DNA from: Escherichia phage vB_EcoM-G3G7
DNA: 64,000 bases
Strand: one strand, 5' to 3'
Sequence record: MZ234040.1
The translations under genes were made by a program, and so were the position numbers. The notes below the pieces were generated by a model that was not told the DNA's origin, ran no database searches, and saw only the letters and a list, made by a program, of their open reading frames with translations. This document shows, in pieces, positions 213 to 64,000 of this stretch; within the stretch, counting starts at the first letter, position 1, and each line of letters begins with the position of its first letter.

Positions 213-3200
213 TTAGAATTTAAAATATTTACTAATTTTGCGAGCAATTTTAGTAAAGAAAGGAGTTTTCAATTCTTTAATTTCTTCACTCATTTCCTGA
301 ATAGCCTTAATTAAAAGAGCATTCACAGCAGAGTTAGAAATTGTCAGAACATCAGATCCATCAACTTCAACTTTAGATACAGCTTCCGGTAATTCCTTTT
401 CAAGGTCCTGAGCAATAATACCAACTTCACGTTTAATAACACTACGGTCTTTAATAGACTTAACTTTATCGTAAATATAAACTTTCAGTCGACATACTTT
501 TTCAAGTGCTCCGTTTTCTAGCTCTTTTTTATTAATCTTAAGACGACCATCGGAACGAATATACACATCGTTAAAGTTACCATTACCAGGAGAATAGAAA
601 GTACCGTCGTAATGAAATTCAAATACCGCGTTAGGGTGTCCAGCCGCTGGTGATGCCTCCGCAGATCCAACACGAATAATTGCTTGCCCCCAATTGTTAG
701 GGACACGACGAATACCAAGATCGACGGCAGTTACAAACCCTTGATTGGTGATTACACTTCTTCCTTTGAGAATCGGATAATAACAATCCTGTGAAACATA
801 ACCATGATCGACGAATATTGGTGCTTCTACTCGCCATTGGTTGCCCCAATCACCCGGTTGTCTAGCAATCCATCCAGAACCGTTAATGTGTACACGATCG
901 CGGTTAACGTTAACCATTGCGATATTTTGTGGATTTAGCGAAATCTCACCATTGTTTGTGATATGTACTGCCGCCTGAGTAGCATAGCTATAAAATGCTA
1001 GCGAATTATCAGCACCACCCTTACCAATATACCAGTTACCACTCCCGTCTACGTCACCACGAATATGCAAAGCATTACCAGCAGTTGTTGATAATACAAT
1101 AGAATCACCCGGACGTTTAATAATCAATCTACCTTCGGATTCAATTTCACCAAAAAATTTAGTCTTAATTGCACCAGTCGCTAAAGTACGTTCAGTGGAA
1201 AAATGAACGCCTTTGCTGTCTTCTAACTGAATAATGTTATCGCGCGCATTATTACTATCACCCCAATGATTAAACCGGAAATAATCACGTGATTGCTTAC
1301 CACCCGCTTCAAACGTCAGCGTACCTTTACTTAAATTAACATCACCGCTAAAGGTAGCAGCAAGAGAATCACGTTCTAATTTTAAAACGTTAGCACCACT
1401 AGTACCACCTAAAGTAACATCACCAGTTCTCAATTCATAACGGAAAGGTCTATTTGTATTATAGTTTCCATTTTGATCATCTTCGTTGGTGGAAAGAATA
1501 TAAAGATTCTCTCCATAAGTACGGAAAATTGTACCAAAATTTCCGGCATACATACGGAATGCATTAGATGAGCGAAATTTAACTTCTGTTTTAAAAGTGG
1601 TAGTGTTATTAAGGTTAACAGTAGAGTTAAAATTGGTAGGAGCACCGAAGTTAACTGCGCCATTAAAATCTTGTTGAGCTGTCCATGTGTGGCGACCATC
1701 TTCAAGAACAACACGGCGGACTGTGCAAGTTCTATTTCCAGAATTACCGAACACACGAACGACAAAATAACGGTAGTTTGTCTGGGATACAGTACCGCGC
1801 CAAACCTGAACAGTACGCCCTGTGCTAGTGTGTTCGCTAGGACCAACGGAAAACATAACCAGGTTTCCGTCAATCGTCCCCCAATCCATATTTGCTGGCA
1901 TATTCTTTATTTTGTTCAAAGGAACACTAAACATACTACCAGGGACAAAATCAAAGGTTTGCCAATCTAGCTCCGCTAATTGAGTTTTAATACCACCCAT
2001 ACCCAAAGTAATTGGCAAAGAGTAAGATGTATATACTTCGTTCCATGTACCCCACGCGCCACCGGTATATGCACGCTCAAAAATACGATCGCGAGTAGTT
2101 GCACCCGTTCCGGCAGTAGTAAATTTTTGGAAAATAGCACCGCCAGAAGCACGCTGTTTAACTTCCAGCAAACCAACAATAACAGTCGGCAAACCTTCAC
2201 CGGTAGGACAGTTAATAACGGCATCAGTGCCTAAAATATTATATAACCCAGGAGTTTTAAAATCATTCAGATCTCCATCATAGAAAGTCGCTGGTGTGAC
2301 ATTACCGACTTGTTGCCACGGTCCCCATTTAGGCGCGGAAGCATCCCACGCGGCAGCAAGACAACGAGTATATACAACACCAAATCTGGTTGTATATCTT
2401 TGTGTACGAGAATAGTTTCCACCTTCATATACTTCCAAAAGACCTTGAGCTGACGACCCCTTTTCTGGGAAATTTCTGTCAAAGGTAGCAATGGAATTTG
2501 AACTATTTCGCCACAAACCAAAGTGTTCAGCGCCTCCTAGATCATTAAGATCAATTGTTGTTGACAGTGGACGAGTACCGGATTGAATATTCTGGGAAAT
2601 TTCTGTCAAAGGTAGCAATGGAATTTGAACTATTTCGCCACAAACCAAAGTGTTCAGCGCCTCCTAGATCATTAAGATCAATTGTTGTTGACAGTGGACG
2701 AGTACCGGATTGAATATTTCGCCACACACTCCACGGACCATTTACTCCGTTCCATGTAGCAGTCAAGGAACGAATATAAACATTTCCGTATCTAGTTGTA
2801 TATCTCTGAGTACCAGCAAATTGACCGGCCACAAATACTTCTAGCACACCTACAGCATTTTCTTCTGGAAATTTATTTGCTGGTTGAGCGTTGGTTGAAG
2901 TTGCTTTCGACCAAACTCCAAGATATTCTTCAACAGGCCCATACGTATCTAAATTAGCATCAGTAGGTAATTCGCCATTATTTTTTATAAATGTTGTGCT
3001 ATTGACATTTATGTCAGATGGAGTTAGCGTGATATCTTTTGACCCATCAAAGGATATACCATTAATTTTTCGTGCTGTTTTTAATTTCGTTGCAGTTGCA
3101 GCGTTACCTGTTAAATTTCCAATTATATTTCCATTAACAGTTAAAGAACCATCAATTGTTCCTCCATATTTTAAACCTAATTCTATAACACTACCTGAGT

Positions 3201-3327
3201 CATCTTTTGTGAAAATTGTTTTATCTTTTAAGTTTATAGCCAATTCACCTTCGGCTAATACTGAAGCTGCAGGACGTTGACCTGCAATTTTGCTTCTTTT
3301 AAATTGTATTTGTTTTAAAGTAGCCAT
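213..3327 (-). CDS. 37: long tail fiber distal subunit gp37; reading frame interrupted by a 127-bp tandem duplication (ORF pieces 2551..3327 and 213..2648)
   Basis: Two adjacent minus-strand ORFs (258 aa and 811 aa) in different frames, both containing [43 protein letters not shown]; removing one 127-bp copy gives one 995-codon ORF; position between gene 36 and gene 38. Confidence 0.85.
2465..2718. repeat. perfect direct tandem duplication, 2 x 127 bp (2465-2591, 2592-2718)
   Basis: Base-by-base comparison of the two copies shows identity over 127 bp, with 2 bp of junction microhomology. Confidence 0.95.
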
Positions 3328-10658: not shown

Positions 10659-11308
10659 TTAAACTCCGCATGCCTGCTGGTGGTGAAAGATACATTGATG
10701 GTAAATCAGTTTATAAATTATACTTAATGATAAAACAACATATGAATGGAAAGTATGATGTTATTAAGTATAATTGGTGCATGCGGGTGTCTGATGCCGC
10801 TTATCAAAAGCGAAGGGATAAGTATTTTTTCCAGAAGTTATCAGAAAAATATAAATTAAAGGAACTTGCTTTAATCTTTATAAGCAATCTTGTTGCTAAC
10901 CAGGATGCTTGGATTGGCGACATCTCTGACGCTGATGCACTTGTGTTTTATCGTGAATATATCGGACGCTTAAAGCAAATTAAATTTAAGTTTGAAGAAG
11001 ATATTCGCAACATTTATTATTTTAGTAAGAAAGTTGAAGTTTCTGCTTTTAAAGAAATCTTTGAGTATAATCCAAAAGTTCAATCAAGTTATATTTTTAA
11101 ACTACTTCAATCGAATATAATTTCGTTTGAAACGTTTATCTTGCTTGATTCGTTTTTAAATATAATTGATAAACACGATGAACAGACTGATAATTTAGTC
11201 TGGAATAATTATTCTATAAAGTTAAAGGCTTATAGAAAAATTTTAAATATTGATTCACAGAAAGCTAAAAATGTTTTCATTGAAACTGTGAAATCTTGTA
11301 AGTATTGA
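10655..11308 (+). CDS. 59: helicase loader gp59
   Basis: 217-aa ORF MIKLRMPAGGERYIDGKSVYKLYLMIKQHMNGKYDVIKYNWCMRVSDAAY... matches T4 gp59; ATGA overlap with the gene 33 stop. Confidence 0.93.
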   Translation: MIKLRMPAGGERYIDGKSVYKLYLMIKQHMNGKYDVIKYNWCMRVSDAAYQKRRDKYFFQKLSEKYKLKELALIFISNLVANQDAWIGDISDADALVFYREYIGRLKQIKFKFEEDIRNIYYFSKKVEVSAFKEIFEYNPKVQSSYIFKLLQSNIISFETFILLDSFLNIIDKHDEQTDNLVWNNYSIKLKAYRKILNIDSQKAKNVFIETVKSCKY

Positions 11309-11309
11309 T

Positions 11310-11942
11310 ATGAATATAGTATATTGGTTTACATTTGAAGACCGTGTCAAAAATAAGACTCCGCCATACTACTATATCGGTAGTAAATTAAATTGCTCAT
11401 TTGAGAACGGAATAATATATGACTCTTCCGGAAAGGAATACTGGAGCTCATGTAAACAAAAAAGATTTTTGAATGCGCTAATGCTTCAAAAACCGAGCGT
11501 TAAAATAATTCAAATTGATGATGACTTGGATGTTATTGAAGCAGAACGAAAATACCAACTTGAAGTAAATGCCAGAGATAATCCAGACTATTTTAATCTG
11601 GTATATGCTGGTGGTGGATTTGGTGTGAGTGGTGAAACTCATCCAGCAAAAGACCCGGAAGTTAGAGAGCATATGAGATTGGCTAATTATATGAACCGTG
11701 ACGATTTTAGACCTTGGAAAACATCACGAGCTAATATAGAGTCTTGGAAATTATCTCATATTGCTTACGAGAATTATGTGTTATTATTATCCTCTAATCT
11801 GTACGGTAAAACTCCCGGATGGCGAAGAGTTAAAGGTAATATAAATATAACTGATACAACTGCTAAATCGATGGTAAAGTATTTCAACTCAGGTTGGATA
11901 CCTCTCGAAGACCCAGAGTATTGCGAATTATGCCAGCTATGA
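11310..11942 (+). CDS. segG: GIY-YIG-like homing endonuclease SegG
   Basis: 210-aa ORF between genes 59 and 32 (T4 segG position); N-terminal IVY...YIGSK resembles a GIY-YIG motif. Confidence 0.7.
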   Translation: MNIVYWFTFEDRVKNKTPPYYYIGSKLNCSFENGIIYDSSGKEYWSSCKQKRFLNALMLQKPSVKIIQIDDDLDVIEAERKYQLEVNARDNPDYFNLVYAGGGFGVSGETHPAKDPEVREHMRLANYMNRDDFRPWKTSRANIESWKLSHIAYENYVLLLSSNLYGKTPGWRRVKGNINITDTTAKSMVKYFNSGWIPLEDPEYCELCQL

Positions 11943-11996
11943 GGTAAAGTGTCATAGCACCAACTGTTAATTAAATTAAATTAAAAAGGAAATAAA
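11943..11996 (+). promoter_or_regulatory. gene 32 translational operator (autoregulatory leader: pseudoknot region plus unstructured A/U-rich gp32 binding site)
   Basis: GTGTCATAGCACCAACTG followed by TTAATTAAATTAAATTAAAAAGGAAATAAAATG, matching the known T4 gene 32 leader architecture. Confidence 0.7.
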
Positions 11997-12902
11997 ATGT
12001 TTAAACGTAAATCTACTGCTGAACTTGCTGCACAAATGGCTAAACTGAATGGCAATAAAGGTTTTTCTTCTGAAGATAAAGGCGAGTGGAAACTGAAACT
12101 CGATAATGCGGGTAACGGTCAAGCAGTAATTCGTTTTCTTCCGTCTAAAAATGATGAACAAGCACCATTCGCAATTCTTGTAAATCACGGTTTCAAGAAA
12201 AATGGTAAATGGTATATTGAAACATGTTCATCTACCCATGGTGATTACGATTCTTGTCCAGTATGTCAGTACATCAGTAAAAATGATCTGTACAACACTG
12301 ACAATAAAGAGTACAGTCTTGTTAAACGTAAAACTTCTTACTGGGCTAATATTCTTGTTGTAAAAGACCCAGCTGCTCCAGAAAATGAAGGTAAAGTATT
12401 TAAATATCGTTTCGGTAAGAAAATCTGGGATAAAATCAACGCGATGATTGCGGTTGATGTTGAAATGGGTGAAACTCCGGTTGATGTAACTTGTCCGTGG
12501 GAAGGTGCTAACTTTGTACTGAAAGTTAAACAAGTTTCTGGTTTTAGTAACTACGACGAATCTAAATTCCTGAATCAATCTGCGATTCCAAACATTGACG
12601 ATGAATCTTTCCAGAAAGAACTGTTCGAACAAATGGTTGACCTTTCTGAAATGACTTCTAAAGATAAATTCAAATCGTTTGAAGAACTGAGCACTAAATT
12701 CGGTCAAGTTATGGGAACTGCTGTGATGGGCGGTGCCGCTGCAACTGCTGCTAAGAAAGCTGATAAAGTTGCTGATGATTTGGATGCATTCAATGTTGAT
12801 GACTTCAATACAAAAACTGAAGATGATTTTATGAGCTCAAGCTCTGGCAGTTCATCTAGTGCTGATGACACGGACCTGGATGACCTTTTGAATGACCTTT
12901 AA
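11997..12902 (+). CDS. 32: single-stranded DNA binding protein gp32
   Basis: 301-aa [54 protein letters not shown]... matches T4 gp32, including the acidic C-terminal tail. Confidence 0.95.
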
Positions 12903-14097: not shown

Positions 14098-15126
<1,029 letters not shown>

Positions 15127-15127
<1 letters not shown>

Positions 15128-15675
15128 TGAAACAATACCAATTTTTAATTAAAGATATCCTGGAAAATGGCTACGAAACCGATGACCGAACAGGCACAGG
15201 AACAATTGCTTTGTTCGGTACTAAATTACGCTGGGATTTAACTAAAGGTTTTCCTGCGGTAACAACTAAGAAGCTCGCCTGGAAAGCTTGCATTGCTGAG
15301 CTACTTTGGTTTTTATCAGGAAGCACAAATGTCAATGATTTACGATTAATTCAGCATGATTCGTTAATCCAAGGCAAAACAGTTTGGGATGAAAATTACG
15401 AAAATCAGGCAAAAGATTTAGGATACCATAGTGGTGAACTTGGCCCAATTTATGGAAAACAGTGGCGCGATTTTGGCGGTGTAGACCAAATTATAGAAGT
15501 TATTGATCGTATTAAAAAACTACCAAGTGATAGGCGTCAAATTGTTTCTGCGTGGAATCCAGCTGAACTCAAGCAGATGGCATTACCGCCTTGTCATATG
15601 TTCTATCAGTTTAATGTGCGTAATGGCTATTTGGATTTGCAGTGGTATCAACGATCAGTAGATGTTTTCTTGGGT
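15127..15675 (+). CDS. td: thymidylate synthase, exon 1
   Basis: MKQYQFLIKDILENGYETDDRTGTGTIALFG... matches T4 Td; exon ends ...TTGGGT immediately before the intron sequence TAATTGAGGCCTGAGTATAAGGTG. Confidence 0.93.
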
Positions 15676-16691
15676 TAATTGAGGCCTGAGTATAAGGTGA
15701 CTTATACTTGTAATCTATCTAAACGGGGAACCTCTCTAGTAGACAATCCCGTGCTAAATTGTAGGACTGCCCTTTAATAAATACTTCTATATTTAAAGAG
15801 GTATTTATGAAAAGCGGAATTTATCAGATTAAAAATACTTTAAACAATAAAGTATATGTAGGAAGTGCTAAAGATTTTGAAAAGAGATGGAAGAGGCATT
15901 TTAAAGATTTAGAAAAAGGATGCCATTCTTCTATAAAGCTTCAGAGGTCTTTTAACAAACATGGTAATGTGTTTGAATGTTCTATTTTGGAAGAAATTCC
16001 ATATGAGAAAGATTTGATTATTGAACGAGAAAATTTTTGGATTAAAGAGCTTAATTCTAAAATTAATGGATACAATATTGCTGATGCAACGTTTGGTGAT
16101 ACATGTTCTACGCATCCATTAAAAGAAGAAATTATTAAGAAACGTTCTGAAACTGTTAAAGCTAAGATGCTTAAACTTGGACCTGATGGTCGGAAAGCTC
16201 TTTACAGTAAACCCGGAAGTAAAAACGGGCGTTTGAATCCAGAAACCCATAAGTTTTGTAAGTGCGGTGTTCGCATACAAACTTCTGCTTATACTTGTAG
16301 TAAATGCAGAAATCGTTCAGGTGAAAATAATTCATTCTTTAATCATAAGCATTCAGACATAACTAAATCTAAAATATCAGAAAAGATGAAAGGTAAAAAG
16401 CCTAGTAATATTAAAAAGATTTCATGTGATGGGGTTATTTTTGATTGTGCAGCAGATGCAGCTAGACATTTTAAAATTTCGTCTGGATTAGTTACTTATC
16501 GTGTAAAATCTGATAAATGGAATTGGTTCTACATAAATGCCTAACGACTATCCCTTTGGGGAGTAGGGTCAAGTGACTCGAAACGATAGACAACTTGCTT
16601 TAACAAGTTGGAGATATAGTCTGATCTGCATGGTGACATGCAGCTGGATATAATTCCGGGGTAAGATTAACGACCTTATCTGAACATAATG
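15676..16691 (+). mobile_element. group I self-splicing intron of td (1016 nt) carrying the I-TevI ORF
   Basis: Intron 5' end TAATTGAGGCCTGAG... and 3' end ...CTGAACATAATG (terminal G) match the T4 td intron; joining the exons gives a 286-aa thymidylate synthase. Confidence 0.9.
15807..16544 (+). CDS. I-TevI: GIY-YIG homing endonuclease I-TevI (intron-encoded)
   Basis: 245-aa ORF MKSGIYQIKNTLNNKVYVGSAKDFEKRWKRHF... with GIY-YIG motif and C-terminal DNA-binding region, inside the td intron. Confidence 0.93.
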   Translation: MKSGIYQIKNTLNNKVYVGSAKDFEKRWKRHFKDLEKGCHSSIKLQRSFNKHGNVFECSILEEIPYEKDLIIERENFWIKELNSKINGYNIADATFGDTCSTHPLKEEIIKKRSETVKAKMLKLGPDGRKALYSKPGSKNGRLNPETHKFCKCGVRIQTSAYTCSKCRNRSGENNSFFNHKHSDITKSKISEKMKGKKPSNIKKISCDGVIFDCAADAARHFKISSGLVTYRVKSDKWNWFYINA

Positions 16692-17003
16692 CTTCCATTT
16701 AATATTGCATCATATGCTACGTTAGTTCATATTGTAGCTAAGATGTGTAATCTTATTCCGGGAGATTTGATATTTTCCGGTGGTAATACTCATATCTATA
16801 TGAATCACGTAGAACAATGTAAAGAAATTTTGCGTCGTGAACCTAAAGAGCTTTGTGAACTGGTAATAGGCGGATTGCCTTATAAATTCCGCTATCTTTC
16901 TACTAAAGAACAATTGGAATACATTCTTAAACTCAGGCCTAAAGATTTCGTTCTCAAAGATTATCAGTCCCACGGCGTCTTGAAAGGAAAAATGGCGGTG
17001 TAA
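16692..17003 (+). CDS. td: thymidylate synthase, exon 2
   Basis: LPFNIASYATLVHIVAKMCNLIPGDLIFSGGNTHIYMNHVEQ... continues the Td frame after the intron. Confidence 0.93.
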   Translation, partial: LPFNIASYATLVHIVAKMCNLIPGDLIFSGGNTHIYMNHVEQCKEILRREPKELCELVIGGLPYKFRYLSTKEQLEYILKLRPKDFVLKDYQSHGVLKGKMAV

Positions 17004-17026
17004 TTTTAATTTAATTGTGAGGATTT

Positions 17027-17290
17027 ATGATTTTACGATTTAAAGATACTTCTGGTGTAGTTCTTTTTACACTTCCTAACCCAAGTGAGTTAGAAGTTCC
17101 AGGACCAAATCAGCCTATTATCATTTATGGCAAAAAATATTATACTCATAAAATGACTCGTGAGTATTTTGATAATAAAATTTCCACAGTTAAAACTTCT
17201 TCTGACTGTTACTACGATATTACTGTTTTAACGGAAAAACAATATGCCGAATTATCACCGCGCGGGCCGTCTATGTCGGGTAGTGAATAA
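17027..17290 (+). CDS. small early protein between td and nrdA (nrdA.2-like by position)
   Basis: 87-aa ORF with GAGG upstream of ATG. Confidence 0.55.
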
Positions 17291-17322
17291 ATACAAATCC
17301 GACTTTGATGTGAATATTCACC

Positions 17323-17571
17323 GTGGTACATTTTGGGGAAATTACGTCGGTAAAGATGCTGGCAGCCGGGAGGCTGCCATTGAATTATTCAAAAAAAGAT
17401 TTTATACGTCGAATTAAATCCGGAGAAATAACTAAAGCACATTTAGAGCCTTTACGTGGAATGAGGCTAGGATGCACATGTAAACCAAAGCCGTGTCATG
17501 GTGATATAATAGCTCATATAGTTAACCGACTGTTTAAAGACGATTTTCAAGTTGAGGACTTATGCAATTAA
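17323..17571 (+). CDS. small early protein (nrdA.1-like by position), Cys/His-containing
   Basis: 82-aa ORF if the GTG at 17323 is used (internal ATG at 17356); contains hairpin GGCAGCC-GGGA-GGCTGCC at 17361-17378; stop overlaps the nrdA start. Confidence 0.45.
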   Translation: MVHFGEITSVKMLAAGRLPLNYSKKDFIRRIKSGEITKAHLEPLRGMRLGCTCKPKPCHGDIIAHIVNRLFKDDFQVEDLCN

Positions 17572-19826
17572 TTAATGTTATCAAAAGTAGTGGTGTTTCT
17601 CAGAGCTTTGACCCGCAAAAAATTATTAAAGTTTTATCTTGGGCATCTGAGGGAACATCAGTAGATCCTTATGAATTATATGAAAATATTAAATCTTATC
17701 TCCGTGATGGAATGACAACTGATGATATTCAGACTATTGTCATTAAGGCCGCTGCGAATTCTATTTCGGTCGAAGAGCCTGATTATCAATATGTAGCTGC
17801 ACGTTGTCTAATGTTCGCTCTTCGTAAGCATGTTTATGGGCAGTATGAACCGCGTTCATTTATTGACCATATTTCTTACTGTGTAAATGAAGGTAAATAC
17901 GACCCTGAACTGTTGTCAAAATATTCAGCAGAAGAAATTACATTTTTAGAATCAAAAATTAAGCACGAACGGGATATGGAATTTACTTATTCCGGGGCGA
18001 TGCAATTAAAAGAAAAATATCTAGTTAAAGATAAAACCACTGGTCAAATTTATGAAACTCCACAGTTTGCATTTATGACTATTGGAATGGCCTTGCATCA
18101 AGATGAACCTGTTGATAGATTAAAACATGTTATCCGTTTTTATGAAGCGGTATCTACTCGACAGATTTCATTACCAACTCCTATTATGGCTGGTTGCCGT
18201 ACTCCAACTCGGCAGTTTAGTTCATGCGTTGTTATTGAGGCAGGCGATTCACTGAAGTCTATCAATAAGGCTTCTGCTTCAATTGTTGAATATATCTCTA
18301 AACGCGCTGGAATTGGTATTAACGTTGGTATGATTCGTGCTGAAGGTTCTAAGATTGGCATGGGTGAAGTACGCCATACTGGTGTTATTCCTTTTTGGAA
18401 ACATTTTCAGACTGCTGTTAAATCATGCTCACAGGGTGGAATTCGTGGCGGCGCTGCTACTGCTTATTATCCTATTTGGCATTTGGAAGTTGAAAATCTT
18501 CTTGTTTTGAAAAATAACAAAGGCGTAGAAGAAAACCGCATTCGTCATATGGATTATGGTGTTCAACTGAATGATTTGATGATGGAACGTTTTGGAAAGA
18601 ACGATTACATTACTTTGTTCAGTCCCCATGAAATGGGCGGAGAGCTTTATTATTCTTATTTTAAAGACCAAGACCGTTTCCGTGAATTATACGAAGCAGC
18701 AGAAAAAGACCCTAATATTCGTAAAAAGCGTATTAAAGCCCGTGAACTATTTGAATTGCTCATGACTGAACGCTCAGGAACAGCAAGAATTTATGTACAG
18801 TTCATTGATAATACGAATAACTATACTCCGTTTATTCGTGAAAAGGCACCTATTCGTCAGAGTAACTTGTGCTGTGAAATTGCTATTCCAACAAATGATG
18901 TGAATAGTCCTGATGCTGAAATTGGATTGTGTACTCTCTCTGCATTCGTACTAGATAATTTTGACTGGCAAGACCAAGATAAAATTAATGAATTGGCAGA
19001 AGTTCAAGTTCGTGCTCTTGATAATCTGTTGGATTACCAAGGATATCCAGTTCCTGAAGCAGAAAAAGCTAAAAAGCGTCGTAACCTCGGTGTAGGTGTT
19101 ACCAACTATGCAGCTTGGCTGGCAAGTAACTTTGCTTCTTATGAAGATGCTAATGATTTAACACATGAACTATTTGAGAGATTACAGTATGGACTCATTA
19201 AAGCATCCATTAAGCTCGCCAAAGAAAAAGGACCTTGCGAATATTATTCAGACACTCGTTGGTCTCGAGGCGAATTACCTATCGACTGGTACAATAAAAA
19301 GATTGACCAAATCGCAGCTCCAAAATACGTTTGTGACTGGTCGGCGCTGCGGGAAGACCTTAAGCTCTTTGGCATCCGTAATAGCACATTATCAGCACTT
19401 ATGCCATGTGAGTCATCTTCCCAAGTTTCTAACAGTACAAACGGTATCGAGCCTCCACGTGGACCAGTCTCTGTTAAAGAATCAAAAGAGGGTTCCTTTA
19501 ATCAAGTCGTGCCCAATATTGAGCATAACATAGACCTTTACGACTATACATGGAAATTAGCTAAGAAAGGTAATAAACCTTATCTTACGCAGGTAGCTAT
19601 TATGCTGAAATGGGTATGTCAATCAGCTTCAGCAAATACATACTATGACCCGCAGATTTTTCCAAAAGGAAAGGTTCCAATGTCAATAATGATTGATGAC
19701 ATGCTATACGGATGGTATTATGGCATTAAAAATTTCTATTATCATAATACCCGTGATGGTTCTGGTACTGATGATTATGAAATAGAAACTCCAAAAGCTG
19801 AAGATTGTTCATCCTGTAAATTATGA
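17562..19826 (+). CDS. nrdA: aerobic ribonucleotide reductase large subunit
   Basis: 754-aa ORF MQLINVIKSSGVSQSFDPQKIIKVLSWASEG... matches T4 NrdA (ATP-cone and catalytic domain). Confidence 0.95.
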   Translation: MQLINVIKSSGVSQSFDPQKIIKVLSWASEGTSVDPYELYENIKSYLRDGMTTDDIQTIVIKAAANSISVEEPDYQYVAARCLMFALRKHVYGQYEPRSFIDHISYCVNEGKYDPELLSKYSAEEITFLESKIKHERDMEFTYSGAMQLKEKYLVKDKTTGQIYETPQFAFMTIGMALHQDEPVDRLKHVIRFYEAVSTRQISLPTPIMAGCRTPTRQFSSCVVIEAGDSLKSINKASASIVEYISKRAGIGINVGMIRAEGSKIGMGEVRHTGVIPFWKHFQTAVKSCSQGGIRGGAATAYYPIWHLEVENLLVLKNNKGVEENRIRHMDYGVQLNDLMMERFGKNDYITLFSPHEMGGELYYSYFKDQDRFRELYEAAEKDPNIRKKRIKARELFELLMTERSGTARIYVQFIDNTNNYTPFIREKAPIRQSNLCCEIAIPTNDVNSPDAEIGLCTLSAFVLDNFDWQDQDKINELAEVQVRALDNLLDYQGYPVPEAEKAKKRRNLGVGVTNYAAWLASNFASYEDANDLTHELFERLQYGLIKASIKLAKEKGPCEYYSDTRWSRGELPIDWYNKKIDQIAAPKYVCDWSALREDLKLFGIRNSTLSALMPCESSSQVSNSTNGIEPPRGPVSVKESKEGSFNQVVPNIEHNIDLYDYTWKLAKKGNKPYLTQVAIMLKWVCQSASANTYYDPQIFPKGKVPMSIMIDDMLYGWYYGIKNFYYHNTRDGSGTDDYEIETPKAEDCSSCKL

Positions 19827-19877
19827 TATAATTTGACTCACGGACGAGTCACCAACTATTAACTAAGCGGAAAATTT

Positions 19878-21056
19878 ATGAGCACAGTTTTTAATACAAA
19901 TCCAGTTGATGTTTTAAAAGAACCTATGTTTTTTGGTTCAGGTCTTGGTATTGCGCGTTATGATATTCAACGTCATAAAGTTTTTGAAGATTTAACCGAA
20001 AAGCAATTATCATTTTTCTGGCGTCCTGAAGAAGTAAACTTAATGATGGATGCTGCACAGTTTAATAAGCTTCCTCAGTATCAGCAAAATATTTTTACTA
20101 ACAACTTGAAGTATCAATCACTTTTGGATAGCATTCAGGGTCGTGCGCCGTCTGCTGTACTTATGTCATTAATTTCAGACCCAAGCCTTGATACATGGGT
20201 TGCTACATGGACTTTTAGTGAAACTATTCACAGTCGTTCATACACTCATATCATGCGAAATCTTTATACTGATCCGTCAAAGGTATTTGATGAGATTGTA
20301 TTAGATGAAGCTATTATGAAACGTGCTGAATCCATTGGACGTTATTATGATGATGTTCTGATTAAAACTCGTTATTGGGAAAACGCTAAAGCTGATATCG
20401 AATACCAAAAAGAAATTAATGCAGACGAAGACGTTATTGAAGATGCTATTGAGCATGAGACATATTGGAAGCGTGAGCTAATGAAATCTCTTTACCTCTG
20501 TTTGCATGTAATCAACGCATTGGAAGCTATTCGTTTTTATGTATCTTTTGCATGTACCTTTAACTTCCATAAGAACATGGAAATCATGGAAGGTAATGCC
20601 AAGATTATGAAGTTCATTGCACGCGATGAACAGCTTCACCTTAAAGGCACCCAATATATTATTCGTCAACTTCAACTTGGCACTGATGGCGATGAATGGG
20701 TTAAAATTGCTCAAGAGTGCGAGCAAGAAGCAGTTGATATTTTCATGGAAGTTAACCGCCAAGAAAAAGATTGGGCAGTTCATTTATTTAAAGATGGCGA
20801 TGTTCCTGGATTAAATACAAATAGCATGTGGAGCTTTATTGATTACTTAACTGTATCTCGTATGAAACAGTGTGGTCTTCCATGCCCAATTACCGATGCT
20901 CCGGTTAAACATCCATATCCTTGGATTCGTGAATATCTTAATTCTGATAATGTTCAATCTGCGCCACAAGAAGTAGAATTGTCATCTTACCTTGTTGCAC
21001 AGATTGATAATGATGTTGATGATAAAGTTATGATGAGTTTTAAAAAATACTTTTAA
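19878..21056 (+). CDS. nrdB: aerobic ribonucleotide reductase small subunit, uninterrupted (no intron)
   Basis: 392-aa continuous ORF with R2 ferritin-like motifs; no intervening sequence. Confidence 0.93.
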   Translation: MSTVFNTNPVDVLKEPMFFGSGLGIARYDIQRHKVFEDLTEKQLSFFWRPEEVNLMMDAAQFNKLPQYQQNIFTNNLKYQSLLDSIQGRAPSAVLMSLISDPSLDTWVATWTFSETIHSRSYTHIMRNLYTDPSKVFDEIVLDEAIMKRAESIGRYYDDVLIKTRYWENAKADIEYQKEINADEDVIEDAIEHETYWKRELMKSLYLCLHVINALEAIRFYVSFACTFNFHKNMEIMEGNAKIMKFIARDEQLHLKGTQYIIRQLQLGTDGDEWVKIAQECEQEAVDIFMEVNRQEKDWAVHLFKDGDVPGLNTNSMWSFIDYLTVSRMKQCGLPCPITDAPVKHPYPWIREYLNSDNVQSAPQEVELSSYLVAQIDNDVDDKVMMSFKKYF

Positions 21057-21060
21057 GGAG

Positions 21061-21083
21061 TGGGCCGCAAGGCCCATTTTATT
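21061..21083 (+). terminator. hairpin plus T-run after nrdB
   Basis: TGGGCC-GCAA-GGCCCA followed by TTTTATT. Confidence 0.6.

Positions 21084-22671
<1,588 letters not shown>

Positions 22672-24102: not shown

Positions 24103-24106
<4 letters not shown>
23876..24106 (+). CDS. small early protein (pseT.1-like by position)
   Basis: 76-aa ORF, translationally coupled (ATGA overlap). Confidence 0.55.
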
Positions 24107-25324
<1,218 letters not shown>

Positions 25325-26054: not shown

Positions 26055-26582
26055 ATGAGCGAATGGTTTGAAGAAGATAAGGTTTATCGCTTTAAAGCTG
26101 GATATAAAGATATTTTTAATGAAACTTGCGGGGCTAATAAACGAATTGCCCAGTTTATTGGGGAAAATTCATTTAAAGTAAAAATAGATCCTGCGAAAAA
26201 TGTTATTAGCATTAAACGTGAAATTGATGATTGTTGGTATAAAGCTGTTGATGTAATGGGTGAATCCTATAAAGTTAGCCCGTTATTTTCAATTGCTTAT
26301 ATGTTAGAATATTCTTTTTTCGAAGAAGTTCAAAAAGATGATTCTGTAAGTAAATTTGAAATTAAAACTGATAAAGAAATTAAGTGGAAAGTAGTAGGTA
26401 TTACTGGTTGCATGTTTTATATCTATGCTCAAACTGATACAAAGGAAGAAGCTAAAAAGAAAGCTCTAGAATATCTTGAAGAGTATGAAGAAGGCCCGGT
26501 AATGATTACTCAAGATGCTGAATTAGTTTCTGTCAAATTAGTTAAAAACGTTGAAAGTAAGGAGCTGGGATCAACATGCTAA
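26055..26582 (+). CDS. early protein, unknown function (175 aa)
   Basis: ORF with GAGG upstream of ATG, downstream of an early promoter. Confidence 0.6.
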   Translation: MSEWFEEDKVYRFKAGYKDIFNETCGANKRIAQFIGENSFKVKIDPAKNVISIKREIDDCWYKAVDVMGESYKVSPLFSIAYMLEYSFFEEVQKDDSVSKFEIKTDKEIKWKVVGITGCMFYIYAQTDTKEEAKKKALEYLEEYEEGPVMITQDAELVSVKLVKNVESKELGSTC

Positions 26583-29058: not shown

Positions 29059-29456
29059 TTTATTGGAGAGTCACTGCCTTAGTGTGAAGTTAAAACGAGG
29101 AGCCGTCGAACTGTCTGATTAATGATTTGCGAATCATTATAGTTTTAAGACCCCGGCAGTTTTACGGTGTACCTCTTGAATGTTATTCTTATAGCGGCAA
29201 GTGCATGCTACCCCGAGGTGATGGCCAATCGGGAGTACGCCTCAAGGCCTATATATCCATCAGTATATATCTTATCCTCGAGAAATCGAACCCGGAACCT
29301 TTAAGCTAACGGTGTGCAACAGATAAGAGCTATAAGGTATGATGACGGGTTTATGGTTATCCTGGTCGTTAAATATCAAAAAACCTATGTTCCCCTTGAG
29401 GGCTTGCGCAGGCAATGCCAATAAGTCCTGCATTTTCATTTAAAAGAGAATTTATA

Positions 29457-36563: not shown

Positions 36564-38621
36564 ATGGAACTTATTACAGAATTATTTGACGGCGCTTCGG
36601 CGCCGGTTGTTAACTTAAATCCTAAGCATAAAATACCACAAATTTTTGCTATTCAAGCCGGCGAAGAAAGCGTGCTTCCTGGATTTAGATTTTGTACATA
36701 CACCTCTGGTGGTGATACGAATAAAAACGTTAAGCCAGGCGATAAAATGATGCATATCGTAATGATAGGTGTTAATGAGAAACTATCATTAGTTAAGCTT
36801 AAAAACTTGGGTGGAAATCCAATTGGTGTCATTAATGCCGTTTTTGATACTGCTCTTCAAACAATGAAACAGTATAAAATCGACGCATGCCTATTCCGCG
36901 TACTAAAAAGTAAAACAAATGGCGCAGCTCGTCAAATGCAAGTTATTGCTGACCGTTTAGTACGTACTAAAGGAGCAGGTCGATATGTTCTTTTAAAGGA
37001 AATCTGGGACTATGATAAGAAATATGCATATATTATGGTTTACCGTAAAAATGCCAATTTAGAAGACATTCCAGGTGTACCTCCTATTTCAACTGAGTTA
37101 TTCACAAAAGTTGAATCAAAGGTCGGTGATGTTTATGTAGACGTTAAAACAGGAAATGCTGTTCCTAAAGCTGTCGCTGTTGCTGCTTCTATTGCTTTAG
37201 AAAATGATAAGCGCACGGACCAAGCTGTTATTCAGAAAACTAAAATCAGTCGTCGATTAGCAGCACAAGCTCAATATTCTACTGTTGATGCTTCACTTCA
37301 GGGTGATAGCTTTGCTGCCAAGAAATATCAAGAGTTTGAATCTAAAGTTCCGGTATATAAAGCAGAAGGTCCGATGAACTCTGGCGTTATCCAGATTGGT
37401 TCAAACTTCAGCAAAGGAGCTATCGGTGGTATGAGAAGTGCTTCTCGTTTTAAATCTAACGATTATGAACTAGAAAGCTTCCGAAATCATATTGCATTGG
37501 CCCATGCACGTTTACGTGATCCATCTATCAAGTTGCAGAGCGATATAACATATCAAGGTTCTCAAGAATATTTAAAGAATAAAGAATTCTTTGATTATAA
37601 AACTGATAAAATTTTAAGCGATCTTGCTGACATTAATATTTCTAATAGCTTTGATGTTATTAAGAAAATTATCAATGATTTGGTTAAAGGTTCTAAAGCC
37701 ACGCCAGATGAAAAGACAGCTATTATTCAATTTGTAATGAATGGCATTTATAAATTGATTAATGAATCTGCTGCCCAGGCATATGAATACGCAAGCACCG
37801 AAGTAGCTCCAAAAGGACTGACTCAGGCTGAATCTGATGTAATTGAAGATTATTGTGCAGATTCATATGTTGAAATGAACTCGTTCCTTTTGGGTAAACC
37901 AGATTCTACCCGTGAAGAATACATGGAACGAGCTATTAAGCACATCGAGACGTTAGATTCTGCCTTTGCCAAAGGATCAGTTCTTCCTCCAGGAACTACA
38001 CTTTACCGTGGGCAAGAAGTTACCTTTAAAACTTTGCGTCATAACATTGAAAATAAAATGTTCTATTTCAAGAACTTCGTATCCACATCGCTTAAACCAA
38101 ATATCTTCGGTGAGCATGGTAAAAACTATATGGCTCTAGATGATTCTGGCGCAGTATTTTCTGGCGAAGGAGAAGGTTCCGTTGATACAGAAGATTTGAT
38201 GCATATGGGTAGTCATTCTACATATGCTAATGAAGATGCTGAAACTAGCGTGGGTATGGTAATTAAAGGAGCTGAGCGAATCAAAGTTATCGTTCCAGGT
38301 CATTTATCAGGATTTCCATCAGAAGCTGAAGTTATTCTACCACGTGGAATTTTACTGAAGATTAATAAAGTAAGTACGTACTTTATGAAAGAAACTGCTT
38401 ATAACAAGTATCTAATCGAAGGTACAATCGTTCCTCCTTCTGAACAATTAGAAGAATCAGTATATGATGGAGACCATCTAATGGAAACTGGTGAAGTTCG
38501 TCCAATGGCTGGATTTAATCAATTCCTTGTAGAAGAATCAAAAGAAGAGGAAAATGAAGTTTCTCAAATCTTGGCTTCTTTGGTTAACATCAACGGAATG
38601 TCTAAAAAGTTCAAAATGTAG
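36564..38621 (+). CDS. Alt paralog (second Alt-like ADP-ribosyltransferase)
   Basis: 685-aa ORF sharing the N-terminal MELITELFD... and C-terminal catalytic region (LYRGQ, FVSTSL, EAEVILPRG) with Alt, but with a divergent middle region. Confidence 0.85.
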   Translation: MELITELFDGASAPVVNLNPKHKIPQIFAIQAGEESVLPGFRFCTYTSGGDTNKNVKPGDKMMHIVMIGVNEKLSLVKLKNLGGNPIGVINAVFDTALQTMKQYKIDACLFRVLKSKTNGAARQMQVIADRLVRTKGAGRYVLLKEIWDYDKKYAYIMVYRKNANLEDIPGVPPISTELFTKVESKVGDVYVDVKTGNAVPKAVAVAASIALENDKRTDQAVIQKTKISRRLAAQAQYSTVDASLQGDSFAAKKYQEFESKVPVYKAEGPMNSGVIQIGSNFSKGAIGGMRSASRFKSNDYELESFRNHIALAHARLRDPSIKLQSDITYQGSQEYLKNKEFFDYKTDKILSDLADINISNSFDVIKKIINDLVKGSKATPDEKTAIIQFVMNGIYKLINESAAQAYEYASTEVAPKGLTQAESDVIEDYCADSYVEMNSFLLGKPDSTREEYMERAIKHIETLDSAFAKGSVLPPGTTLYRGQEVTFKTLRHNIENKMFYFKNFVSTSLKPNIFGEHGKNYMALDDSGAVFSGEGEGSVDTEDLMHMGSHSTYANEDAETSVGMVIKGAERIKVIVPGHLSGFPSEAEVILPRGILLKINKVSTYFMKETAYNKYLIEGTIVPPSEQLEESVYDGDHLMETGEVRPMAGFNQFLVEESKEEENEVSQILASLVNINGMSKKFKM

Positions 38622-49038: not shown

Positions 49039-49067
49039 GTCTAAATACCATGTAATAAATATATCTA

Positions 49068-49075
49068 TATTTATA
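49068..49075 (-). promoter_or_regulatory. T4-type late promoter (TATAAATA) for uvsW
   Basis: TATAAATA on minus strand about 30 nt upstream of the uvsW ATG. Confidence 0.6.
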
Positions 49076-49088
49076 CTGAGGAAATATT

Positions 49089-49778: not shown

Positions 49779-51197
49779 ATGACTTTTACAGTTGATATAA
49801 CTCCTAAAACACCGACAGGGGTTATTGATGAAACTAAGCAGTTTACTGCTACACCCAGTGGTGAAACTGGAGGCGGAACTATTACATATGCTTGGACTGT
49901 AGATGATGCTCCACAAGATGGAGCTGAAGCAACTTTTGATTATGTATTAAAAGGACCTGCTGGACAAAAGACTATTAAAGTAGTTGCAACAAATACAGTT
50001 CCAGATACTGATGCTGAAACAGCAGAAGCTACTACAACTATCACAGTTCAAAATAAGACACAAACAACTACTTTAGCTGTAACTCCTGGTAGCCCTGATG
50101 CTGGAGTGATTGGAACTCCAATTGAATTTACCGCTGCCTTAGCTTCACAGCCATCAGGTGCAAACGCTACGTATCAATGGCACGTTGACGGTTCTCCTGT
50201 AGACGAAGCAACTGACGCTACATTCAATTACACTCCTGACACAAGCGGAGTTAAAAAAATCAAGTGTGTAGCTCAAGTAACTGCGGCAGATTATGATGCA
50301 CTAAGCGTTACTTCTAATGAAGTATCATTGACTGTTAATAAAAAGGAGCAGACAACTACTTTGGCAGTAACTCCTGATAGTCCTCCAGCGGGAGTAATCG
50401 GAACCCCAGTTCAATTTACTGCTGCCTTAGCTTCTCAACCTGATGGAGCGTCTGCTACGTATCAGTGGTATGTAGATGATTCACAAGTTGGTGGAGAAAC
50501 TAACTCTACATTTAGCTATACTCCAACTACAAGTGGAGTAAAAAGAATTAAATGCGTAGCCCAAGTAACTGCTGAAAATTACAATGAAAAGGAAGTTACT
50601 TCTAATGAAGTATCATTGACAGTTAATAAGAAGACAATGAATCCACAGGTTACATTGACTCCTCCTTCTATTAATGTTCAGCAAGATGCTTCGGCTACAT
50701 TTACGGCTAATGTTACGGGTGCTCCAGAAGAAGCACAAATTACTTACTCATGGAAGAAAGATTCTTCTCCTGTAGAAGGGTCAACTAACATATATACTGT
50801 CGATACCTCATCTGTTGGAAGTCAAACTATTGAAGTTACTGCTGTCGTTACTGCAACTGATTACGATAGCAAAACTATTACAGCAGAAGGTCAAGTTCAG
50901 GTAACTGATAAAGTTGCTCCAGAACCAGAAGGTGAACTACCTTATGTTCATCCTCTTCCACATCGTACTTCAGCTTATATCTGGTGCGGTTGGTGGGTTA
51001 TGGATGAAATCCAAAAAATGACCGAAGAAGGTAAAGATTGGAAAACTGAAGATCCAGACAGTAAATACTACCTGCATCGTTACACTCTTCAGAAGATGAT
51101 GAAAGACTATCCAGAAGTTGATGTTCAAGAATCACGCAATGGATACATCATTCATAAAACTGCTTTAGAAACTGGTATCATCTATACCTATCCATAA
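49779..51197 (+). CDS. hoc: Hoc, highly immunogenic outer capsid protein, with four Ig-like domains
   Basis: 472-aa ORF MTFTVDITPKTPTGVIDETKQFTATPSGETGGGTITYAW...; C-terminal capsid-binding region ...ELPYVHPLPHRTSAYIWCGWWVMDEI...; internal diverged tandem repeat of one Ig-like unit. Confidence 0.9.
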   Translation: MTFTVDITPKTPTGVIDETKQFTATPSGETGGGTITYAWTVDDAPQDGAEATFDYVLKGPAGQKTIKVVATNTVPDTDAETAEATTTITVQNKTQTTTLAVTPGSPDAGVIGTPIEFTAALASQPSGANATYQWHVDGSPVDEATDATFNYTPDTSGVKKIKCVAQVTAADYDALSVTSNEVSLTVNKKEQTTTLAVTPDSPPAGVIGTPVQFTAALASQPDGASATYQWYVDDSQVGGETNSTFSYTPTTSGVKRIKCVAQVTAENYNEKEVTSNEVSLTVNKKTMNPQVTLTPPSINVQQDASATFTANVTGAPEEAQITYSWKKDSSPVEGSTNIYTVDTSSVGSQTIEVTAVVTATDYDSKTITAEGQVQVTDKVAPEPEGELPYVHPLPHRTSAYIWCGWWVMDEIQKMTEEGKDWKTEDPDSKYYLHRYTLQKMMKDYPEVDVQESRNGYIIHKTALETGIIYTYP

Positions 51198-52810: not shown

Positions 52811-54094
52811 TTATTCATCAATGATAATTTTTGGTAGCTTAACACCTAATAAAACAGACAAATCTGAACGACCCGCCATTTTATCCATATCTCCACCATC
52901 AATTACTCTTGCTTCTTTTTCATCTTTTGCTACAGTGTAAGGATTTGCAGATAAAGCATATCTAACTAATAAACCGATAGATGGCTGCAAACTTTCTGGA
53001 TCAACTACAACTTTAAATGCACCTACATGTTCAGGGTCATCTAAGTCAAGACCTTCTGTATACGGAGCATAGAAAATTGATCCAACAATTTCTTTTTCAC
53101 CAATATTTTCTACTACGCCAACGATTACATAATCTAATGGACTGTTGGTATCGCAATAAAGCGGTAAACCATTAGCTAAGAACCCGTAGGCATTTTGTGA
53201 AAGATATTTGTCATCTTCTGGTTTATGTTTTAACCAACCTGATGCAGCAAGAATCGCAGCGGCACGAGCTGAAGCAACACAGAACGTTGCTGTATAAGTT
53301 GATTCTTTCTGGATATGTGAAACCATTTCACACACCATTCGGTATAATGAACGACCAGCTTCAGGTGCAGATGCATAACTCAAATCAATGAATCCAGTAT
53401 CAGTAATTCCTGTAACTTTATAGCGTTTTGACACTGTAATCAAAGACTGCAGAATATCTTTATTGATTTCATCTGCCATTTCAGTTGCAAGCAAATCTTC
53501 CAAGAAATTAGGAGCATCGAATCCATTTGCTTCTAAATCTTGTGCTAATTCAACTGTGATACCAGTTTTAAGTTTACGAGATTTAACTGCGGTTTGCCAT
53601 TTATTAATCTGAAATCTAGCATCCGCAATTTCACTATCAGAGCTTTCAAATTTGCTTGTTGACGCTGCGTCAGAAAATAGACGAACCTTTAAAAGAACAA
53701 TTGCAATCTGAAGAGCTAATTCTAAATCGCTTTCTTCAATATCAGCAAATGGTGTATCTTCTAATACTTTATAAACGATATTATTATATTTGAATAAATC
53801 GCCCTTATTGAGAGTTAATTTAGACTCTTCTGTTAATTCTGTGATTTGTTCTCGGTCTACATATCCAGCTTCGCCAGCATAAGTAGCACCAGTTTTAAAT
53901 GTAAATTCATTGTCTGGGTTAAGGTATTTTATACCATAAAAAGCAGCAACAGGTTGATTAGTTCTTTGCGTTGCTACAATGTCAGAATATATTAATTTAG
54001 TGGTAGCGCGAGTCAAAGCAACGAGATTTGGGCGACCGATTGAGTTGCTATTCGTTGTGGTTGATTCGCGCAGAAGTTCGTTGATTTTAGCCAT
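52811..54094 (-). CDS. 24: capsid vertex protein gp24
   Basis: 427-aa ORF (T4 gp24 length), paralogous in fold to gp23. Confidence 0.92.
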   Translation of the reverse strand: MAKINELLRESTTTNSNSIGRPNLVALTRATTKLIYSDIVATQRTNQPVAAFYGIKYLNPDNEFTFKTGATYAGEAGYVDREQITELTEESKLTLNKGDLFKYNNIVYKVLEDTPFADIEESDLELALQIAIVLLKVRLFSDAASTSKFESSDSEIADARFQINKWQTAVKSRKLKTGITVELAQDLEANGFDAPNFLEDLLATEMADEINKDILQSLITVSKRYKVTGITDTGFIDLSYASAPEAGRSLYRMVCEMVSHIQKESTYTATFCVASARAAAILAASGWLKHKPEDDKYLSQNAYGFLANGLPLYCDTNSPLDYVIVGVVENIGEKEIVGSIFYAPYTEGLDLDDPEHVGAFKVVVDPESLQPSIGLLVRYALSANPYTVAKDEKEARVIDGGDMDKMAGRSDLSVLLGVKLPKIIIDE

Positions 54095-54121
54095 TGCGCT
54101 TTCCTTTCAGTTTATATGATT

Positions 54122-54129
54122 TATTTATA
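54122..54129 (-). promoter_or_regulatory. T4-type late promoter (TATAAATA) for gene 24
   Basis: TATAAATA on minus strand about 28 nt upstream of the gene 24 ATG. Confidence 0.6.
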
Positions 54130-54130
54130 C

Positions 54131-54162
54131 CATAAAAACAACTAAAGGGACCCGAAGGTCCC
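54131..54162 (-). terminator. hairpin terminator after gene 23
   Basis: Minus-strand GGGACC-UUCG-GGUCCC followed by a U-rich stretch. Confidence 0.65.
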
Positions 54163-54177
54163 TTAAATCGTCAAAGA

Positions 54178-55743
54178 TTAGATACCTTTAACATATACAC
54201 GGCGGAAGTAAGCGTTTTTACCAAGGCTATTCAGAATAGAAGGCATACCGCTCTGGATGCGAGAAGCCGGAGCCTGAGCAGCGGATTCTGCAAATGGGTT
54301 GATACCGATACCGTAACGAGTTTTGAATCCCATTACCGGTTGGAAGTTCTTCGGATCGGAACCACGCAGCGGAGTCAGAGCTACATATGGAGCATAGTAA
54401 ATACCAGCATCCATTTCGTTCGGACCTTTATAACCTACGGTGAAATAATCCTGTTTAGCATACTGGTCGATATATACACGGTATTTACCACCCAGAACAC
54501 CAGCAAATACTGACTTGGTAGTATCAGTGTTAAAGCCAGTAGCCAGACCTTGTGCAGCATAAGAAATGCCGGTATCAACTGAAGCCAGAACGTTAACTAC
54601 GTTACGGGAAGCGATAATGAAGTTACCTTCGCCGCGACCAGTCTGACGAGCAATTTCAACTGCTTCTTTGTCAATCTGGAACAACAGAGCTTTAAAGGAT
54701 TCACCTGCCCAGCGAGCACCACGAATATCGATTGGGTCCTGGAAGTCAAATACACCAGCTTTAGAACCCGGAGTCAGGGTCATACCAGATTTACCAACCT
54801 GAGCGGAGTAGTTAATCCAATCAACAACTTCGCGGTTGATTTCCAGCATAATTTCGGTAGCCAGAATACCAGACAGTTCAGCATCAGCATCCATACCGTG
54901 AACAGCGCGAAGGTCTTGTGCTAATTCAATAGAGTAAGCAGCTTTCAGCTGACGAGATTTAGCTTCGATAACTTGCTTATCGATACGGAAGCCCATTTCA
55001 TTCCATGGGTTATCGGTAGAACCGTTAAAACCTTCCTGAAGTTCAGCGATAGAAGTAGCCATACCTTCAGCGATTTCTACCAGTACACCAGCTTCCATTT
55101 GTTTCTTAATTTCAGCATCTAATTTGTCTGCGTCAGATGCGCCTGAATCAATTTGTTTAACTTCTGTAGCTTGCAGATATACTGTACCAGTTTCCTGGAA
55201 GAAGTGAGTGTAAATAGTTCCGACTTCAAGAGTATCACTTGCTTTCAAAGCAGCGAATTTCTTAGCAGCACCCTGACCAGAGAACATTGCATCTGGACCA
55301 TACATTGGGTGGAATGCTTCTTTAGCACCGGAAGCGATTGGGTCTTTACCATATACTGCGCGCAGTGCGAATACCTGGCCAGTCGGGCTGTTCATTGGCT
55401 GAACACCACAAATATCGAAAGCAATCAGGTTAGGAATAGCACGACGTACCATACCCATAACAGCTGGGCCAATCTGAGTTACTGCTCCAGAAGTCTGACC
55501 TGCAGCGATGTTGGTAGCATTGTAACCGTGGTCACCACCGATTTCAGCTTCTGTTAAGAAAGAACCGAATGCCTGAGCAATTTTTTCGTCTTTATATTCC
55601 GGAGCTGTCTGGAAATCTTTTTCCTGGTTTTCAAAGATTTTAGCGATAATCGCTTGTTTGCTATTAGCAATTTCCGGTAAACCTTCACCTTCCAGTAATG
55701 GCTTCCATTTGTTCAAAAGTTCAGCTTTAGTTTTGATAGTCAT
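54178..55743 (-). CDS. 23: major capsid protein gp23
   Basis: 521-aa ORF MTIKTKAELLNKWKPLLEGEGLPEIANSKQAIIAKIFENQEKDFQTAPEY... matches T4 gp23. Confidence 0.96.
   Translation of the reverse strand: MTIKTKAELLNKWKPLLEGEGLPEIANSKQAIIAKIFENQEKDFQTAPEYKDEKIAQAFGSFLTEAEIGGDHGYNATNIAAGQTSGAVTQIGPAVMGMVRRAIPNLIAFDICGVQPMNSPTGQVFALRAVYGKDPIASGAKEAFHPMYGPDAMFSGQGAAKKFAALKASDTLEVGTIYTHFFQETGTVYLQATEVKQIDSGASDADKLDAEIKKQMEAGVLVEIAEGMATSIAELQEGFNGSTDNPWNEMGFRIDKQVIEAKSRQLKAAYSIELAQDLRAVHGMDADAELSGILATEIMLEINREVVDWINYSAQVGKSGMTLTPGSKAGVFDFQDPIDIRGARWAGESFKALLFQIDKEAVEIARQTGRGEGNFIIASRNVVNVLASVDTGISYAAQGLATGFNTDTTKSVFAGVLGGKYRVYIDQYAKQDYFTVGYKGPNEMDAGIYYAPYVALTPLRGSDPKNFQPVMGFKTRYGIGINPFAESAAQAPASRIQSGMPSILNSLGKNAYFRRVYVKGI

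Positions 55744-62177: not shown

Positions 62178-64000
<1,823 letters not shown>

Follow-up and report, generated by a model that had tools for sequence, protein, structure and literature searches.

A 2010 review calls T4 'an oddity' among the T-even phages, with 15 homing endonuclease genes, and a patchy occurrence of introns and free-standing endonuclease genes in this group was described in 1987-1989; older papers on variable intron occurrence are listed in the review. In the T4 reference record, segD is annotated between genes 23 and 24 and segG between 59 and 32; td contains I-TevI, and the nrdB intron a defective I-TevIII gene. T2 is the classical recipient for homing of the nrdB intron. 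I-TevIII cuts 14/16 bp upstream of the intron site; the I-TevIII of T4 is defective, being a deletion derivative, and the T4 nrdB intron moves only in trans, through nicking by MobE in the 5' part of nrdB. As described in the MobE paper, the non-coding strand of T2 nrdB is nicked in codon 42. This codon, reported as AAG for every mobE-less phage, adjoins the sequence coding for FFWRPEE. The same paper proposes that a polymorphic stretch at nt 114-131 is read by the catalytic domain, and that polymorphisms there protect mobE-carrying genomes.

Homing endonuclease genes have a known life cycle. In a mixed infection, the endonuclease cuts or nicks the allele that lacks its gene; double-strand-break repair then copies the endonuclease gene together with its flanks into the cut allele; homing elements later erode or disappear. 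The occupancy described below is read as an outcome of this cycle.

We have examined 64,000 nucleotides of Escherichia phage vB_EcoM-G3G7 (MZ234040.1), referred to below as the window, taking NC_000866 as the T4 reference for all element checks and aligning the window to T4 98,000-162,000. The annotated gene order is that of T4: 38, 37 ... rnh, 59, 32, frd, td, nrdA, nrdB, denA ..., continuing with rnlA, pseT, cd, 31, 30, alt, the baseplate genes, uvsY and uvsW, and ending with hoc, 24, 23 and on to gene 17. The window is almost certainly an ordinary Tequatrovirus segment. T4 has six mobile elements in the homologous 64 kb, and two of these occur here. Which elements are there and which are not, where exactly they begin and end, how far the sites agree in sequence and how frequent each state is among phages were established directly.

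Occupancy of the window compared with T4

The window carries the group I intron in td, with I-TevI inside it, and segG as a free-standing gene. Absent, relative to T4, are the nrdB intron with its I-TevIII remnant, mobE together with nrdB.1, segD and segE. Synteny with NC_000866 thus bears out the original prediction that occupancy differs from that of T4, with the td intron and segG in place and the nrdB intron and segD missing, and adds two absences, mobE with nrdB.1 and segE, that were not on its list. No remnant of any of the four absent elements was found at its site in the window.

DNA that is specific to the window relative to T4 comprises small ORFs, a hoc that exceeds that of T4 in length, and another full-length alt-like gene; neither hoc nor this alt-like gene has a nuclease domain. 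When five window-specific ORFs (14098-14343, 14921-15127, 24103-24423, 26055-26582 and 29127-29309) were searched for nuclease domains, none had a Pfam match, and such PHROG matches as they have are to families of unknown function; no unannotated homing endonuclease gene, therefore, stands in for the missing ones. The first four of these ORFs are absent from T4 and belong to PHROG families of unknown function. One of the four, 68 aa long, sits between frd and td; these two genes overlap in T4, and T2 has a different ORF at this place. The second alt-like ADP-ribosyltransferase gene (36564-38621, 685 aa) lies directly 3' of alt, at a position where T4 has only the remnants alt.-1 and alt.-2, and hoc (49779-51197) is 1419 nt long vs 1131 nt in T4, which makes it ~300 nt longer. 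At 24501-24750, within pseT, a 250-nt stretch has only 78% identity to T4 but 94% identity to T2.

From position 2590 to its end at 64000 (~61 kb), the window is 100.000% identical to Escherichia phage vB_EcoM-CHD2BS1 (MZ234027), the record of which is classified as Tequatrovirus ecombl75. A 3.5-kb query spanning the nrdB locus is 100% identical to vB_EcoM-CHD2BS1 and ~10 sibling isolates; phages including ES12, fPS-65 and JB75 match it at 98-99% identity. Byte identity with MZ234027 along the whole length of the window was considered and rejected on account of a 127-nt tandem duplication at 2463-2718 (2.0 copies, 100% match) within gene 37, on the minus strand. Gene 37, which encodes the long tail fibre distal subunit, is intact in MZ234027 (2988 nt); here the duplication shifts the frame and leaves two ORFs, 213-2648 and 2551-3327. 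The 127-nt unit is present as a single copy in all eight closest GenBank relatives among the matches listed. The largest SPAdes k-mer is 127, and the likely source of the duplication is therefore a re-oriented assembly in which a circular-contig overlap was left untrimmed.

A probable assembly artefact in one part of the window is what speaks for reading the missing elements, too, as products of assembly or annotation. The chance of that is vanishingly small: positions 19000-22500 are at least 99.9% identical in twelve independently deposited genomes, the empty nrdB and 23-24 junctions are each common to nearly 600 records, and the reading frames are intact over all junctions.

The td intron and segG

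The features at the two occupied sites, all on the plus strand, are:

11310-11942, plus strand: segG, between gene 59 (10670-11308) and gene 32 (11997-12902)
15127-15675, plus strand: td exon 1, ending ...TTGGGT, with its 5' splice-site context as in T4
15676-16691, plus strand: 1016-nt group I intron of td, with TAATTGAGG at its start and ...CATAATG at its end
15807-16544, plus strand: I-TevI ORF in the td intron, 245 aa
16692-17003, plus strand: td exon 2; the joined exons form an intact td

The claim that td carries a 1016-nt group I intron with I-TevI can now be given its exact boundaries. The junctions (...TTGGGT^TAATTGAGG ... CATAATG^CTTCC) mark the T4 insertion site, with U as the last base of the exon and G as the last base of the intron, and the spliced exons make an 861-nt ORF for a thymidylate synthase of 286 aa that is colinear with those of T4 and T2. 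The td intron of the T4 reference record shares the insertion site and is 1017 nt long, as compared with 1016 nt here; the two introns are 99.6% identical, with 3 substitutions and one 1-nt indel, and from this identity it is inferred that the window's intron self-splices. A change relative to T4, C to A at 16624, lies between the last two ribozyme hairpins. The I-TevI proteins agree in 244 of 245 residues, W143L being the single change. Three Pfam domains score above cutoff in I-TevI, GIY-YIG (PF01541), the I-TevI zinc finger (PF22635) and the I-TevI DNA-binding domain (PF20987), with NUMOD3 just under the Pfam cutoff; T4 I-TevI shares both this domain set and the length of 245 aa.

Rfam does not find this intron directly, a limit of the model that does not speak against the intron. 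At gathering score the whole window gives no match, and at E<=1 the region 15400-21300 gives only a chance match to an L20 leader; Intron_gpI (RF00028) is missing from these matches, an ORF of ~740 nt sitting in a loop that the model cannot span. A conspecific phage, vB_EcoM-101112UKE3-1 (MZ234013), provides a way around the difficulty. Its td intron is only 320 nt long, ~696 nt that include most of I-TevI having been deleted, and this ORF-less intron matches Intron_gpI at 66.9 bits (gathering 50, E=9e-17, model positions 1-253). The first 93 nt and the last 207 nt of the shorter intron are identical to those of the window's intron, as are the td exon flanks, 100 nt on each side. Since both ribozyme halves are identical to those of an ORF-less copy that Rfam recognizes, the ribozyme of the window is the same RNA with the ORF still in its loop. 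Group I introns with endonuclease ORFs inside them will escape covariance-model scans. The td intron of 101112UKE3-1 is also, in its own right, a within-species snapshot of homing-endonuclease decay.

The setting of the td intron is mixed. The exon polymorphisms at -22, +3, +6 and +18 are T2-like, although the intron itself is T4-like, and this combination of T2-like flanks with a T4-like intron shows that the history of the td element was not one of simple recent transfer from T4 itself; the exon background of the element in the window evidently differs from that in T4. Further into exon 2, at 16751-17000, identity to both T4 and T2 falls to ~86%, with several C-terminal amino-acid changes; T4 and T2 differ from each other at 13 of the 312 nt of exon 2.

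In MZ234027 td is annotated as two separate 'thymidylate synthase' CDS, the intron itself is unannotated and a spurious 'hypothetical protein' is placed within it at 15679-15777. The annotation of td in the public records of this phage group, as two genes plus a spurious intron ORF, can be corrected.

SegG was expected between genes 59 and 32 and is found there; none of its 210 amino acids differs from T4 SegG, and the gene is 99.7% identical to that of T4 at the nucleotide level. The protein matches PHROG 7504 'homing endonuclease' at E=1e-133. A GIY-YIG domain is not recognized in it: no Pfam family matches at E<=0.01, and PHROG homing-endonuclease families are the only ones to match; the protein being identical to T4 SegG, the missing Pfam match is a limit of the Pfam models and not a difference from T4. 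The 2010 review places the gene 32 late promoter within segG, as seen here, with TATAAATA at 11840-11847, and states that SegG cuts gene 32. Over 11251-12250, a span that takes in segG plus the opening 250 nt of gene 32, identity to T4 is 99.6% vs 93-96% to T2, and beyond it T4 identity drops to ~95%. This distribution would fit a tract of co-conversion left by SegG-driven homing and running into gene 32. Both the td intron and segG are lacking in T2.

The empty nrdB, segD and segE sites

The sites that are occupied in T4 and empty in the window, together with the sequences at which homing would be expected to begin in nrdB, are:

19827-19877, plus strand: nrdA-nrdB spacer, 51 nt, empty site for T4 mobE and nrdB.1 (700 nt), from T4 comparison
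19878-21056, plus strand: nrdB, for the small subunit of class Ia ribonucleotide reductase, an uninterrupted ORF (392 aa plus stop)
20001-20033, plus strand: predicted MobE target from published nick mapping, with codon 42 AAG at 20001-20003 and the FFWRPEE block at 20013-20033
20538-20554, plus strand: empty nrdB intron insertion site and predicted I-TevIII cuts 14/16 bp upstream, from T4 alignment and published distances
49039-49088, no strand assigned: uvsW-inh spacer, empty site for T4 segE (635 nt), from T4 comparison
54095-54177, minus strand: gene 23-24 spacer, 83 nt, empty segD site, between gene 24 (52811-54094) and gene 23 (54178-55743), both on the minus strand

That nrdB is one continuous ORF of 392 codons had been noted from the start, and it is indeed unbroken; Pfam Ribonuc_red_sm (PF00268) matches residues 33-335 of the protein at E=1e-36. 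Alignment with T4 puts the intron insertion point at 20553/20554 (TTTTGCAT^GTACCTTT), with no insert. The 598-nt intron and the 700-nt mobE/nrdB.1 block of T4 are absent from the window, and in the 51-nt spacer at 19827-19877 a chance 8-mer is the sole local match to mobE/nrdB.1. Both nrdA and the 3' portion of nrdB, past the intron site, are colinear with T4 at 96-97% identity, whereas in nrdB upstream of the intron site identity drops to 85%, with indels, and the T4 protein has 388 aa as compared with 392 here. Within 30 bp of the intron site the T4 exons differ from the window only at -2, which is A here and G in T4.

T2 (AP018813) is the closer match at this end of the gene. Its nrdA-nrdB spacer is also 51 nt long, with 4 substitutions relative to the window, and its nrdB is likewise uninterrupted (1179 nt; 94.2% nucleotide identity, 69 substitutions, 11 amino-acid changes). 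The differences between the two nrdB genes are concentrated at nt 480-630, and the 5' part at 19751-20000 is 98% identical to T2 and 78% identical to T4. At the intron site, -45 to +30 is identical in T2 and the window; codon 42 AAG and the FFWRPEE block are shared, and the 24 nt upstream of codon 42 are identical. Just downstream of the MobE nick codon, by 3 and 6 nt, there are synonymous differences from T2 at nt 129 and 132. Judged from these comparisons, the nrdB of the window is an uninvaded T2-type allele, and its 5' region has the signature that would be expected of an allele never co-converted with mobE.

A patch of nrdB at 20355-20490 (~nt 480-610, residues 160-205) is hypervariable, with 82-87% identity among the window, T4 and T2 and indels relative to T4, and is flanked by well-conserved sequence. 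In the T2 record AP018813, nrdB is wrongly labelled thymidylate synthase, and nrdA carries the wrong label of single-stranded DNA-binding protein.

We infer that no element ever entered the four empty sites, as opposed to having entered and been removed. The opposite course of events, in which the nrdB intron, mobE, segD and segE were once carried and were then lost, whether they were deleted precisely or replaced in recombination with an empty allele, has some precedent. Loss is known in the group, as the conspecific phage with ~696 nt of the I-TevI ORF deleted from its td intron attests; T4 I-TevIII is itself a deletion derivative; and the genome is a mosaic at a scale of a few hundred bp, as judged from identity to T4 and T2 along the window. 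Nevertheless, loss is unlikely here: the four elements have left zero remnant, and the 5' region of nrdB has the full set of T2-type polymorphisms (AAG in codon 42, A at -2) instead of a T4-type co-converted flank, although recombination with an empty allele would look alike.

Sites that have never been invaded may still be open to invasion, and the original prediction called the empty sites potential homing targets, a claim that fares differently from site to site and that overlooked the absence of mobE. For nrdB it is reasonable. By sequence, the gene keeps the sites that MobE and an intact, RB3-type I-TevIII would need, its I-TevIII site and its codon 42 (AAG) being those of T2, and there are good grounds for expecting nrdB to be susceptible to MobE nicking and to I-TevIII cleavage. 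The contrary reading is that the empty sites are immune, protected from MobE and I-TevIII by polymorphisms in their targets. The nick codon of MobE is followed by the synonymous changes at nt 129 and 132, which fall inside or just beside the nt 114-131 stretch, the polymorphisms of which are argued in the MobE paper to protect mobE-carrying genomes, and these changes could alter sensitivity to MobE. Yet T2 has the same codon 42 and the same 24 nt before it, the FFWRPEE-coding block is conserved and the whole of the I-TevIII site from -45 to +30 is unchanged from T2, so that immunity is very unlikely. In crosses for segE, mobE or the nrdB intron, this phage could be the recipient.

The case of segD is otherwise. 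The 23-24 spacer was predicted to hold only a terminator and a late promoter where T4 has segD, and both its sequence and NC_000866 agree. After gene 23 comes a terminator-like hairpin at 54164-54145 (AAGGGACCTTCGGGTCCCTT, then a T-rich tail), and the gene 24 late promoter, TATAAATA at 54129-54122, lies 27 nt upstream of the gene 24 start. T4 shares the gene 23 terminator hairpin and the TATAAATA late promoter before gene 24, but between hairpin and promoter it has 789 nt, including an antisense segD, that are absent here; 60 of the 83 nt of the window's spacer are without a T4 counterpart. SegD reportedly does not home, and its cleavage site is said to be the same in segD-plus and segD-minus phages, which makes the label of homing target doubtful for the empty 23-24 spacer. 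The 2010 review describes the target of segD as unknown, and the gene as antisense and without a promoter of its own.

Frequencies among phages and value as a lineage marker

Frequencies were determined in a collection of 50,697 phage records, an element or site being counted when one place in a record covers at least 80% of the query. The numbers below are of records and include duplicates (RefSeq and GenBank copies, several T4 stocks); since the search joins matched pieces up to ~575 nt apart, a few short ORF-less introns, such as that in PQ349265, are scored as uninterrupted.

T4 nrdB intron: 118 records (~17% of matching records, about 1 in 6)
Uninterrupted nrdB site, 150-nt probe across the site: ~589 records
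SegD: 53 records (~8%)
Empty 23-24 spacer: ~587 records
Full-length T4-type mobE: 21 records, with a further ~120 records matching mobE partly, mostly at the 5' end beside nrdA
SegE: 159 records
Td intron with I-TevI: 196 records
SegG: 141 records

Empty nrdB, mobE and segD sites are thus the norm, and the td intron and segG are minority states; these conclusions are robust despite the way in which records were counted. T4 is the outlier, not the phage examined here. The contrast with T4 that was drawn at the outset therefore holds as a description, but not as a peculiarity of this phage, the empty state being that of the majority (~589 vs 118 records for nrdB, ~587 vs 53 for segD). There is nothing unusual in the occupancy pattern, and the phenomenon was already known; the counts quantify how far T4 is an outlier and otherwise contribute little beyond bookkeeping. 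We regard as a long shot the more specific idea that nrdB in this lineage is a naturally protected empty site, with the changes at nt 129 and 132 lowering MobE nicking. If these changes did lower nicking, they would go some way to account for the rarity of the nrdB intron and mobE, at about 1 in 6 records, in spite of efficient homing in the laboratory.

It had also been proposed that the empty sites help to place the phage among T-even lineages, and here the comparison with close relatives speaks against the claim. Occupancy is a weak lineage marker, because the I-TevI ORF is deleted in the conspecific 101112UKE3-1 and because segD and segE vary in near relatives: PYPS2T and its relative PYps11T are each 97.9% identical over the nrdA-rnlA stretch; segD is present in the former, and both segD and segE in the latter. 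With such differences within the species and among near relatives, the use of occupancy as a lineage marker was rejected. The phage is already placed by whole-genome identity.
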